Origin: Candidatus Helarchaeota archaeon
Lineage (GTDB): Archaea > Asgardarchaeota > Lokiarchaeia > Helarchaeales > RDOG01
Reading direction: 5' to 3'
NCBI GenBank assembly: GCA_029838215.1
Contig: JALGVI010000045.1
Location: 1-29,208, forward strand
DNA length: 29,208 nucleotides
Each line of letters begins with the position of its first letter. Position 1 is the first letter of the stretch. The translations under genes and the position numbers were made by a program. The notes under the pieces are model-generated. The model had not been told where the DNA came from, ran no database searches, and saw only the letters and a program-made list of their open reading frames with translations. This document shows positions 10,445 through 14,814 of this stretch, in pieces.

Positions 10445-11449
10445 TCATTCCTCTTCTAGTGGTGAAATGGCAGATTTTAAATAATTTATAATGAAATTTT
10501 TAGCTTCAACAAGATTTTTCTTACCATTACATCCAGCAGCATTTTCATGACCACCTCCAGAGCCATCAATCAAAGGACCGAGTGGTTCCATTATGTCCCT
10601 TCCTAGATGAATTCCAGTTTCTTTTGAAAAAGAATACGTGCTTCTCGCACTAATTCTGACTTCGTTCTTTCGCTTTAAAAAAATAAAAACGGCATCAGCT
10701 CCTAAACCCAATAATGCACGGCAAGCACTCGCATCATAGGAACTAACTTGAGAAAAAACCACCGTTTTTCCATGAATTTGATGAATCTTCATTCGCTGTG
10801 CAGCTTTTAACCGGGCTAACTTTTCAGGACGATCCATGTCAAATTTCAATAACTCAACTATTTCTGCATAAGGTACCTTGAGCTTTAATAAAGCAGCGGC
10901 CACTTCAAAGGTATTTTCATTCGCCAAAAGAAAATGTCTGGAATCAGAAACCATTCCCACCAGTATTGCCTCAGCCACAACAAGATCTAAAGGAACGTCC
11001 AATTCTTCATACAATCGATAAACCAATTCGGAAGCAGAGGGCGATCCCGCATCAACAAATGACCATGAAGTGAGATCCTTTACCGCTTCAGATTGATGAT
11101 GATGGTCAATTAAATATACCAATCGGCTTGAATTCAGAAGATCGCGATGTTTTCCCAAGAGTTCGGGACTATTTAAATCAAAAAGCAACAAGCAATCTGG
11201 ATTAAAATCTTTCAGATCTTCTAAAAATGGAATTTTAAGTTTTTCAATTATCTTTTTTGAAACGAGCGATACTTCATCTCCGCAGATCTTGACTTCGATA
11301 TCAGGACAGATCTTTTTTATTAAAGAATAGAGAGCAAATCCTCCGCCTACGGCATCGGGATCTGCATTCTTGTGTAACATGATTGCAATTCGGTTACACC
11401 GATCTTCTTTAACCTGCTGTAAGAAATCCTTCATGATAATCAAGATCAA
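10445..11449 (-). CDS. DHH/DHHA1 family phosphoesterase (NrnA / oligoribonuclease-PAP phosphatase-like)
   Basis: HKNADPDAVG, LFD, LIDHH, SASEL, GMVSDS.HF, ISARS, GGGHENAAG. Confidence 0.92.
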   Translation of the reverse strand: MILIIMKDFLQQVKEDRCNRIAIMLHKNADPDAVGGGFALYSLIKKICPDIEVKICGDEVSLVSKKIIEKLKIPFLEDLKDFNPDCLLLFDLNSPELLGKHRDLLNSSRLVYLIDHHHQSEAVKDLTSWSFVDAGSPSASELVYRLYEELDVPLDLVVAEAILVGMVSDSRHFLLANENTFEVAAALLKLKVPYAEIVELLKFDMDRPEKLARLKAAQRMKIHQIHGKTVVFSQVSSYDASACRALLGLGADAVFIFLKRKNEVRISARSTYSFSKETGIHLGRDIMEPLGPLIDGSGGGHENAAGCNGKKNLVEAKNFIINYLKSAISPLEEE

Positions 11450-11476
11450 ATAGTTTAGCTGGTGCAGGGAGTGGGA

Positions 11477-11507
11477 TTTTCGAAGACCATATAGCTACAT
11501 GGTCACC
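11477..11507 (-). other. tRNA intron 3 (31 nt), non-canonical position 59/60
   Basis: BHB: outer GTGGG/CCCAC, central TTCG/CGAA, bulges AA|G and AA|T, intron hairpin GACCATGT-AGCT-ATATGGTC. Confidence 0.9.
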
Positions 11508-11538
11508 TTCGAACCCACGAACCTCTACAGGACTGGAT

Positions 11539-11576
11539 GTCCTATTTTATTCGCGAACTTAAGGCGTTCGCGCGAT
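11539..11576 (-). other. tRNA intron 2 (38 nt), canonical position 37/38
   Basis: Follows G37. Relaxed central helix CTCA/TAGG (one G-U, one mismatch); strong internal hairpin CGCGAAC-GCCTTAA-GTTCGCG. Confidence 0.88.
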
Positions 11577-11592
11577 CTTGAGTCCAGCGCCG

Positions 11593-11611
11593 GTGGTCTT
11601 CTTGAAAGAAT
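11593..11611 (-). other. tRNA intron 1 (19 nt), non-canonical position 21/22
   Basis: Strict BHB: outer GCC/GGC, central GGTC/GACC, bulges AA|A and AC|C, intron hairpin TTCT-TTCA-AGAA. Confidence 0.88.
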
Positions 11612-11773
11612 TTGACCGGCTTGGCTATCCCTGCTTGTTTTCGCTCCACCAGAATCAATCCTGCATGATTTAGATTATTTCATGCTTGACATGTTCCGGT
11701 TTCAATTTTTGTTCACGTTTGGTCAGTAAACTCATTAGAACAAAATACATATAAAAATTAATCTCACGGAGGA

Positions 11774-12910
11774 TCATAAATCGACTTCTTTTAATTGCTT
11801 GACTACGGCCTTCTGTTCATTCGTAAGTTTTCTAGGAATGTCAATAACGACTTGAACTATTTGATCTCCACGCCCAACATGTTCAGCATCATATCCCGGA
11901 ATGTTGCGAAGAATGGGAAATCCCTTTTTCTTCAATGTGAAAATATCACCTGAAGACGTGCCTTTTGGAATTTTTAACTTCTCTTTTTCGGCATTACCAA
12001 CGGCCCAATCCAAAGTTGGGACTTCAATTGTATCGCCCAGCAAAGCTTGGCTAATTTTAATGGGCATTTGAACGATTATATTGTGATCATTAACATGAAA
12101 AATGGAATGTTCACGGACATAGACTTCTACGTACAAATCACCCGGAGGTCCGCCCCGGACTCCTGCATCGCCTTCACCAGATAATTTGAATCGAAGTCCA
12201 GAATATGCTCCTTTTGGAACTCGAATGGTAACGGTTCTCTTGCGTGTAATTTTTCCCGAACCATTGCACTCCTTGCAGGGATCCTTTATTACAGAACCTT
12301 CACCATGACAACGTGAACAGGTAGAAATGACGATCGATTGTCCAAAAGCAGTTCTTCGAATATCACGTTTTTCACCAGTTCCGTTACATGAAGGACATGT
12401 TGTCGGTTCAGTCCCTTCCTTTGCTCCTGAGCCATTACATGATGGGCATTGCTCGGCGCGTGGTATCTCTATTTTTTTCGTGACTCCTGTAAAGGCCTCT
12501 TCCAAAGTCAATTCAATTTCATATCTTAGATTTCGTCCCTTTTGTGGACCTTTGCGGGTAGAACGCTGATGAGACCGTCTTCCAAAAATGCTACCGAATC
12601 CAGAAAAAATATCGCCAAATCCACCGAATCCGCCGCCACCACCAAAGATTTCACTAATTAGATCTGAGAAAAACCCCATTCCCCCAGAGTCGTAACGGCG
12701 GCGTTTTTGAGGATCAGATAAGATTTCATGAGCAAGATTAATTTCCTTGAATTTTTCTTCAGCATCATGACTTTTATTAATATCGGGATGATATTTTTTC
12801 ACGAGTTTTCTGTATGCCCGCTTGATATCATCCTGTGAAGGGTTGTCTTCCTTTCTTAAACCAAGTATCTTGTATAAATCCTTTTGATAGATATCATGCG
12901 GGACTGACAT
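11774..12910 (-). CDS. dnaJ: Chaperone DnaJ (Hsp40, class A)
   Basis: J domain with HPD, G/F-rich linker, four CxxCxGxG repeats (CPSCNGSG, CPSCNGTG, CSRCHGEG, CKECNGSG). Confidence 0.98.
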   Translation of the reverse strand: MSVPHDIYQKDLYKILGLRKEDNPSQDDIKRAYRKLVKKYHPDINKSHDAEEKFKEINLAHEILSDPQKRRRYDSGGMGFFSDLISEIFGGGGGFGGFGDIFSGFGSIFGRRSHQRSTRKGPQKGRNLRYEIELTLEEAFTGVTKKIEIPRAEQCPSCNGSGAKEGTEPTTCPSCNGTGEKRDIRRTAFGQSIVISTCSRCHGEGSVIKDPCKECNGSGKITRKRTVTIRVPKGAYSGLRFKLSGEGDAGVRGGPPGDLYVEVYVREHSIFHVNDHNIIVQMPIKISQALLGDTIEVPTLDWAVGNAEKEKLKIPKGTSSGDIFTLKKKGFPILRNIPGYDAEHVGRGDQIVQVVIDIPRKLTNEQKAVVKQLKEVDL

Positions 12911-12924
12911 TTCGTTACAACACC

Positions 12925-12934
12925 AAAAAAAAAA
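12925..12934 (-). terminator. Oligo-T (T10) tract between dnaK and dnaJ; possible partial terminator
   Basis: Ten consecutive A on the + strand, 8 bp after the dnaK stop and directly before the GGTG RBS of dnaJ. Confidence 0.4.
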
Positions 12935-12942
12935 GTAATAAA

Positions 12943-14814
12943 TTATTTGTCTATTTCATATTCAACGTCTACCGCGTCGTCATCTGTCGGTTCGGAACTA
13001 GGAGGGCTTGGTCCCGGACCAGCCTGAGAAGCCTGTTGATATGCTTGTTGAGCTGCCTGTTGTGCTGCCACGTCTTGATAGATTTTTTGTGAAAGCACGT
13101 GTAAATGACTCTCAAGATTTTGCATTTCCTGCTTGATTTTTTCAACATCATCAGATTCCAAGACTTTCTTCAGTTCTTCGATGCCTTTTTCCAGTTTTTC
13201 CTTCAAGTCCTTGTCAATTTTAGCTTCGTGTTCCTTCATGAGTTTTTCAGTAGAATATACCATTTGCTCTGCTTGATTTCTTGTTTCAACTTTCTCTTTT
13301 ATCATTTTATCCTGTTCTGCGTATTCTTCGGCTTCCTTGATCTTCTTATGAATTTCATCCTCAGAAAGTTTAGTAGATGCTGTAATTGTTATAGCCTGGC
13401 TTTTACCCGTACCGAGATCTTTTGCAGATACATTTAGAATGCCGTTTCTATCGATGTCGAAAGAGACTTCAATCTGTGGCACGCCTCTGGGTGCAGGTGG
13501 AATGCCAACAAGGTGAAATTTTCCGAGCGTGACATTATCTTTTGCCATTGGTCTTTCGCCTTGTAGAACGTGAATCTCTACTGCTGGCTGATTATCTGCT
13601 GCAGTAGAAAAGATCTGGCTTTTCTTCGTTGGAATCGTGGTATTTCGTTCAATGAGCTTGGTAAAAACACCTCCAAGTGTTTCCACACCCAAGGATAATG
13701 GTGTAACGTCAAGAAGAACCAATTCATCAGTTTCTCCTGCTAATACCCCTGCTTGAATGGCAGCACCCATTGCCACGCACTCCATTGGATCGATACCGCG
13801 TTCAGCTTCTCTTCCAAAGAAATCAGCAAATTTCTTACGCACGCAAGGCATCCTAGTTGGACCTCCAACCAAAATGATATTATCTACTTTTGAAGCAGGA
13901 ATGCCTGAATCGTTTAAAGCCCGTCTTATAGGAGCATCAAGACGATCGAGAACGGGTTCAATGATTTGTTCCATTTTGGCTCTGGAGAGCGTCATTGTCA
14001 AATGTTTGGGACCAGTTTCGTCTGCTGTTATGTAAGGCAGATTAATAGAAGTTTCTAACGTTGTAGATAATTCGATTTTTGCTTTTTCGGCGGCTTCTCG
14101 CACGCGCTGCATTGCCATGGAATCTTTTGTAAGGTCTATCCCTTGATCTTTTTTGAATTCTTCCACGATCCAATCAATGATCCGCCTGTCCATGTCAGTA
14201 CCACCCAGGGCAGTATCTCCAGCGGTAGATTTTACTTGGAAGACACCTTCACCCATTTCCATTATGGTAACGTCAAACGTTCCACCACCCAAGTCTAAAA
14301 CGCAAATCGTGAGTTCCTTCTCTAATTTATCTAGGCCATAAGCAATCGAAGCCGCAGTAGGTTCGTTGATCAAGCGTACTACTTCAAGACCCGCAATTCG
14401 TCCTGCATCTTTTGTTGCTTGGCGCTGATTATCATTAAAATAAGCTGGCACCGTGATAACTGCTTTTTCTACTTTTTCACCCAAGAATGCTTCAGCATCG
14501 TTTTTTATCTTGGACAGAATCATTGCTGAAATATCTTGAGGCGTGTATTCTTTATCATCAATTTTAACCTTGTAATTTGTTCCCATTTTCCGCTTGATCG
14601 CCATTATCGTACGATCGGGATTGGATACTGCTTGTCTTCGTGCAGGTTCACCTACCAATCTCTGACCATCTTTCGTAAATGCAACAACTGATGGAAATGC
14701 CTTTCCACCGATTGAAACACCTTCCGCACTAGGTATGATAGTGGGTTTACCACCAATAAATGCGGCAGCCGCAGAGTTGGAAGTACCTAAGTCGATTCCT
14801 ATTATTTTGGACAT
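12943..14814 (-). CDS. dnaK: Chaperone DnaK (Hsp70)
   Basis: [48 protein letters not shown]-terminal DDAVDVEYE. Confidence 0.99.

Follow-up and report, generated by a model that had tools for sequence, protein, structure and literature searches.

The locus described here raises the question whether a 175-nt stretch, which is recognized as a tRNA gene only after 19, 38 and 31 nt have been taken out of it, is a functional gene with three introns, a decaying copy of such a gene, or a product of too generous excision. It is located in the window, by which the whole 29,208-nt stretch of DNA that was analysed is meant, between dnaJ and a gene for a DHH/DHHA1 phosphoesterase. With high confidence we conclude that the locus is a functional tRNA-Leu(CAA) gene, present in one copy in an Asgard (Promethearchaeota) archaeon, and that three endonuclease-type introns interrupt it.

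The pre-tRNA gene occupies positions 11634..11460 on the minus strand, starts with GCAGGGA and ends with TCCCTGCACCA. A sequence-only reading of the window had proposed that removal of three introns at 21/22, 37/38 and 59/60 leaves a normal 87-nt leucine cloverleaf, and this is what was found. Each of the three stretches occurs once (19 nt, 11611..11593; 38 nt, 11576..11539; 31 nt, 11507..11477), their excision gives an 87-nt product that is called tRNA-Leu(CAA) by ARAGORN, and the intron positions agree with those proposed. In this product the acceptor stem is 7 bp long and the anticodon stem, which carries the loop CUCAAGA, 5 bp; the variable arm is long, the T-arm reads GUGGG-UUCGAAU-CCCAC, and both A73 and an encoded CCA are present. 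An encoded CCA is normal for this genome, since it is shared by 24 of the 25 compact tRNA genes. The gene and its neighbours are arranged as follows.

11774..12910, minus strand: dnaJ, the upstream neighbour, at the end of an hsp20-grpE-dnaK-dnaJ row
11612..11634, minus strand: exon 1 (pre-tRNA nt 1-23), with the acceptor 5' strand, U8 A9, the D-stem 5' strand and the D-loop to A21
11593..11611, minus strand: intron 1, 19 nt, position 21/22, strict hBHBh' motif
11577..11592, minus strand: exon 2, C22 to G37, with the D-stem 3' strand, the anticodon stem 5' strand and the anticodon CAA
11539..11576, minus strand: intron 2, 38 nt, canonical position 37/38, relaxed bulge-helix-bulge motif and an internal 7-bp hairpin (CGCGAAC/GTTCGCG)
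11508..11538, minus strand: exon 3, A38 to A59, with the anticodon stem 3' strand, the long variable arm, the T-stem 5' strand and the T-loop TTCGAA
11477..11507, minus strand: intron 3, 31 nt, position 59/60, bulge-helix-bulge core with an imperfect inner helix and an 8-bp hairpin
11460..11476, minus strand: exon 4, with U60, the T-stem 3' strand, the acceptor 3' strand, A73 and the encoded CCA (11462..11460)
10445..11449, minus strand: gene for a DHH/DHHA1 phosphoesterase, the downstream neighbour, which starts 10-25 nt past the CCA of the tRNA

The chaperone row upstream of the tRNA extends over window positions 11774-14814 (minus strand) and beyond, and downstream of the tRNA there are two genes for DHH/DHHA1 phosphoesterases and an ORF of 206 aa that has no Pfam match. 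A scan for sigma-70 promoters and intrinsic terminators, which is not applicable to archaea, delivered nothing useful, and a comparison of the upstream regions of 25 tRNA genes revealed no common motif at a fixed distance. Neither a promoter nor a terminator of archaeal kind could be recognized with conviction. Window positions 11695-11770 (minus strand), which belong to the 140-nt spacer separating dnaJ from the tRNA, gave a C/D-box-like Rfam match to SNORD59 (19.5 bits, E 0.28), which is far below the gathering score. The spacer also contains a TATA-like TTTTTATATG, which is not significant as it stands.

The geometry of the bulge-helix-bulge (BHB) motifs was scored by script against the standard layout, in which an outer helix (h) is followed by a 3-nt bulge with the cut behind its second base, a central helix of 4 bp (H), another 3-nt bulge and an inner helix (h'). 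Intron 1 forms a strict hBHBh' motif: H is GGTC/GACC with 4/4 pairs, the bulges are AA|A and AC|C, h has 3 bp (G15-C17 with G23-C25), and h' has 4 bp and is closed by a 4-nt loop. Intron 3 likewise has a complete H (TTCG/CGAA, 4/4), with bulges AA|G and AA|T and the whole 5-bp T-stem as h; its h' is weak and consists of one G-U pair and a U-U mismatch, followed by the 8-bp hairpin. In intron 2, H (CTCA/TAGG) has 3/4 pairs with a C34 x A mismatch, the bulges are AG|A and AC|A, the anticodon stem serves as h (h 6), and h' has only 1 bp beside the bulge, with the 7-bp hairpin set apart. It had been stated from the letters that introns 1 and 3 refold the D-loop and the T-loop through these very helices and that the canonical intron has the most relaxed motif. 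Both statements were borne out by the script.

When the boundaries were shifted in ways that yield the same mature RNA, the motifs scored by script became far worse; 37/38 and 59/60 are therefore supported splice sites. In mononucleotide shuffles of the 175-mer, about 1.9 of the 8804 intron placements that are possible had a strict motif, and chance is excluded as the source of the motifs, because two placements fixed independently by the cloverleaf both have a perfect H. All three motifs and the acceptor stem are compatible in one secondary structure of -51.3 kcal/mol, with local values of -9.1, -7.6 and -16.3 kcal/mol, and the fold of the whole precursor has a z-score of -7.2. Nearest-neighbour folding favours slipped registers by about 4-8 kcal/mol over the BHB registers, giving a 6-bp continuous helix at intron 1 and a 6-bp UUCGAA/UUCGAA helix at intron 3. 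We read this preference as an effect of the bulge penalty that the folding model applies, and not as counter-evidence to the motifs.

A survey of the same gene in relatives, which the sequence-only reading had suggested, was carried out by BLAST of the region against 61 genomes (its own and 60 relatives up to class level), of which 22 matched. By spliced alignment, 19 loci in other genomes were identified as orthologues of tRNA-Leu(CAA). The automated refinement of boundaries mis-parsed a few distant loci, and the conclusions rest on the clean ones. The intron positions in these relatives are as follows.

G001, same family: 21/22 (24 nt, GGTC/GACT) and 37/38 (15 nt)
G002, same order: 32/33, 37/38 and 59/60
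G052, G056 and G058, one class-level genus: 32/33, 37/38 and 59/60
G044, G017 and a Promethearchaeota archaeon MAG, class level: 21/22 in all three and 37/38 in G044 and the MAG; the second intron of G017 was not cleanly placed

Triple-intron tRNA-Leu(CAA) genes thus occur in four other genomes among the 61 sampled, with 32/33 in place of 21/22. Among the genomes searched the set 21/22, 37/38 and 59/60 is confined to this genus; a sister family has 21/22 and 37/38, and the set 32/33, 37/38 and 59/60 is found in another family of the order and in one Loki-type genus. No look-alike stretches were detected in the other scanned genomes. The mature sequences of the orthologues are kept with compensatory changes in the anticodon stem, the T-stem and the variable-arm stem, and in the introns nothing but the motif strands can be aligned. 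All 21/22 introns, which range from 19 to 56 nt, keep GAC[CT]. At 59/60 the conserved intron strand is CGAA, with TGAA in its place in genes whose T-loop carries A57 instead of G57; in the tRNA-Leu(UAA) of two genomes, A57 together with the change from CGAA to TGAA forms a compensatory pair.

Two further features were observed in the relatives. In three loci of one genus (L015, L018 and L020) the anticodon loop carries two introns five nt apart (32/33 and 37/38) in addition to a 59/60 intron. In one related family (L013, L014, L016, L018, L019 and L021) the canonical introns are 40-47 nt long, all keep CCGTTGA and end in CTGATGAGA. CCGTTGA is the complement of TCAACGG in the tRNA's own D-loop and D-stem, and it could be an alternative pairing in the pre-tRNA or a guide-like element.

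It is conceivable, although we hold it to be somewhat doubtful, that the set of intron positions is lineage-specific and informative and arose by repeated independent gains at half-motifs encoded in the exons (GGUCAA...CGG and UUCGAA), and not from one ancient set with losses. If gains were indeed repeated, the leucine tRNAs of the class would form a compact natural series for the dating of intron gain, and it could be tested with them whether exon sequence alone dictates where introns settle.

Interrupted tRNA genes were also found elsewhere in the same genome. The gene for tRNA-Leu(UAA) (contig C75:6342-6503, minus strand) has introns at 14/15 (22 nt) and 21/22 (56 nt), the latter at the same site and with the same GGTC/GACC helix as intron 1 of tRNA-Leu(CAA). 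This gene has no encoded CCA, unlike most tRNA genes of the genome. The gene for tRNA-Pro(CGG) (contig C1:37303-37467, minus strand) has a 40-nt intron at 59/60 with TTCG/CGAA and a 10-bp inner helix; it shows further insertions in the D-arm and the anticodon region, where its parse is ambiguous. Parses filtered with an HMM of the genome's compact tRNAs suggest 59/60 introns also in a tRNA-Tyr gene (C88) and in a gene of Arg or Pro type (C102), for which the ARAGORN parses disagree on the anticodon. The genome-wide tRNA census gives a lower bound, as it depends on a T-arm that is contiguous or broken by a 59/60 intron; spurious multi-intron solutions enter it unless an HMM filter is applied, and the genes named here are therefore examples. 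Where other tRNA genes carry an intron at one of these positions, its similarity to the tRNA-Leu(CAA) intron is restricted to the motif strands.

These comparisons bear on the possibility that one or more of the introns release a functional small RNA, either a guide RNA or a stable circular RNA. Such a role could be read into the perfect, GC-rich 7-bp hairpin of intron 2 and into the conservation, within one related family, of a canonical-intron motif complementary to the D-loop of the tRNA. Against it, the canonical intron of the same-family orthologue is unrelated and 15 nt long, no Rfam family matches the gene even at E <= 10, and no C/D or H/ACA boxes were seen by eye. The introns also have no other copy in the genome: a blastn-short search returned self-matches only, the next best being 13-nt chance matches. 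We regard a functional intron RNA as very unlikely.

Another reading takes the gene for a pseudo-tRNA, a copy in decay from which the insertions are no longer excised, in which case tRNA-Leu(UAA) would read UUG. The genome does contain tRNA-Leu(UAA), and the central helix of the canonical intron is imperfect; an imperfect canonical helix of the CTCA/TAAG type is, however, kept in the orthologues of three other genomes, so it appears to be tolerated and is not a sign of decay. Every stem of the spliced product is intact, the exons are conserved with compensatory changes across the class, and the BHB strands are kept where the intron bodies diverge. An intact tRNA-Leu(CAA) elsewhere, which the sequence-only reading had named, together with a lack of spliced product in RNA data, as the mark of a pseudo-tRNA, was looked for in the whole assembly (3.62 Mb, 170 contigs, 38.6% G+C, 94% complete) by a spliced-alignment scan with the mature sequence. 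None was found, the next match being tRNA-Leu(UAA), and the gene is the sole CAA copy detected; at 94% completeness another copy could be unassembled. UUG accounts for about 22% of the leucine codons in the genome. Because tRNA-Leu(UAA) could in principle read UUG, the tRNA-Leu(CAA) gene need not be essential. Taken with the evidence from the relatives, a pseudo-tRNA is highly improbable, and a functional gene with three introns is the preferred reading.

The parse itself was subjected to several controls. An independently assembled JGI metagenome contig (sample 3300033148) carries the identical 175 nt and, over 7137 positions, agrees with the window at all but 5. In a permissive control, BHB-like segments around T-arm anchors were located genome-wide, up to three of them were removed in every combination, and ARAGORN was run on the products; many false tRNAs resulted when excisions of more than 100 nt were allowed, with spurious four-intron ones at about a dozen loci. 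The HMM of compact tRNAs rejects these spurious multi-intron parses, and in an unbiased enumeration of motif combinations it ranks the three-intron parse first at the locus, with 27.1 bits. Over-fitting, in which the three introns would be an artefact of permissive excision and the true structure would have fewer introns or other boundaries, draws on the many spurious tRNAs that BHB-stripping with ARAGORN produces and on the several alternative parses found even at this locus, and is nevertheless extremely improbable, given that the spurious solutions require excisions of more than 100 nt and have no HMM match, that the three-intron parse scores best here, that a motif-free spliced alignment to the orthologues recovers the same three gaps, and that shifted boundaries destroy the motifs.

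The enzymes expected to act on such a precursor are encoded in the genome. Two genes have the EndA domain (PF01974), each with both EndA Pfam domains. The first, EndA alpha, lies on contig C168, has 190 aa and matches the catalytic subunit of Aeropyrum pernix (3p1z_B) over its full length at 5e-48, with the active-site Tyr, His and Lys retained in the alignment. Its nearest atlas cluster is Promethearchaeota, a phylum in the kingdom Promethearchaeati, in agreement with an Asgard host. The loop GIRKPKNAEF of EndA alpha aligns without gaps on the Crenarchaea-specific loop (CSL), K47 falling on K44 of A. pernix and K49 on R46. Hirata (2011, PMC3241643) showed that broad specificity is due to this loop and that RNA is recognized by K44, a residue required for a D-loop intron. 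The second paralogue, on contig C1, has Thr at the position of the catalytic His of M. jannaschii EndA (1a79_A) and no Crenarchaea-specific loop; from its sequence it looks like a structural beta subunit. Its sequence resembles the homotetrameric enzyme of M. jannaschii (1e-21) more closely than it does the crenarchaeal beta subunits (4e-5). Typing of the endonuclease, proposed at the outset as a check, thus points to a catalytic alpha subunit with the loop Lys and a His-less beta subunit, the predicted (alpha-beta)2 plus L1 arrangement. An RtcB ligase is also encoded (577 bits).

From the anatomy of the gene and this set of enzymes the following route may be proposed. The 175-nt region would be transcribed as a single precursor, in which every exon-intron junction would fold into a BHB motif. 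In the D-loop motif G15-C17 would be borrowed as the partner of G23-C25, and the T-loop motif would be made of the T-stem and the UUCG of the T-loop. As the BHB motifs would occupy both the D-loop and the T-loop, the mature elbow between them could not form before introns 1 and 3 are removed. The (alpha-beta)2 splicing endonuclease of the genome would cut every 3-nt bulge behind its second base, and RtcB would ligate the four exons. Refolding of the D-arm (G10-C12 with G23-C25) would then give the 87-nt class II tRNA that reads UUG. We infer that transcription, cleavage and ligation of the tRNA-Leu(CAA) precursor take place in this way.

The unspliced gene is missed by ARAGORN in the whole window and by Rfam, which gave no match at the gathering score and none at E <= 10 on a 501-nt excerpt; the earlier warning that standard annotation may miss the gene was justified for both programs. 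Since ARAGORN and the Rfam covariance models fail on such genes, the tRNA complements of such genomes are under-called. In this assembly no more than 36 candidates are listed by ARAGORN, and several of these are doubtful, from which it follows that a considerable share of the tRNAs is hidden. Combining in one 175-nt transcript a strict motif in a refolded D-loop with a relaxed one at the canonical site and another in the T-loop, the gene is a tidy test substrate for an Asgard splicing endonuclease. Its value is that of a clean substrate and of a worked example of annotation failure. It opens no new question; this kind of endonuclease, tRNA genes with several introns and the failure of annotation to see them have already been published.

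The splicing endonuclease is best compared with the (alpha-beta)2 EndA with CSL of A. pernix (3p1z/3ajv). As in that enzyme, the alpha subunit has Tyr, His and Lys together with a Lys equivalent to K44, and the second subunit is His-less; unlike in A. pernix, the putative beta subunit is more M. jannaschii-like. An Asgard EndA with (alpha-beta)2 architecture and an L1/CSL loop was reported in 2018 (Kaneta 2018, PMC5829648). The significance that the sequence-only reading had attached to the gene is not supported.

The same reading had held triple-intron tRNAs to be known mainly from Thermoproteales, for which up to three BHB introns per tRNA are described (Sugahara 2008 and Fujishima 2010, cited after the 2026 preprint named below and PMC4090602). 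As far as these accounts go, the present system resembles that of the Thermoproteales in its non-canonical intron positions and in an (alpha-beta)2 EndA with a Crenarchaea-specific loop. In Thermoproteales, according to the same accounts, related introns recur across tRNA genes (intron transposition), whereas here none of the three introns recurs in the genome. The restriction to Thermoproteales is outdated. In three complete Asgard genomes 92-95% of the tRNA genes have introns, over half of them several, and many of these introns are non-canonical (Valentin-Alvarado 2024, PMC11291895). A survey of 90 Asgard genomes has followed (Goswami 2026 preprint, bioRxiv, October 2026, 10.64898/2026.10.13.758758). 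Asgard multi-intron tRNAs with up to five introns per gene, and D-arm introns missed by annotators, are documented in these two works (PMC11291895; 10.64898/2026.10.13.758758). The reading had itself cautioned that many published Asgard triple-intron tRNAs would lower the novelty, and the published multi-intron ones do so: with the Asgard EndA type, the multi-intron tRNAs and the missed D-arm introns already in print, the claim of novelty fails. Neither the Leu(CAA) gene nor the set 21/22, 37/38 and 59/60 was found named in the texts consulted from 2024 and 2026. The present gene is like the Asgard multi-intron tRNAs of that literature in having BHB introns at D-arm, anticodon-loop and T-arm positions, in a D-arm intron that is missed by annotation, and in the presence of two EndA paralogues in the genome. 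The papers of 2024 and 2026 centre on Atabeyarchaeia, Freyrarchaeaceae and Jordiarchaeaceae, whereas the genome described here represents another lineage, with class-level relatives of Loki type.
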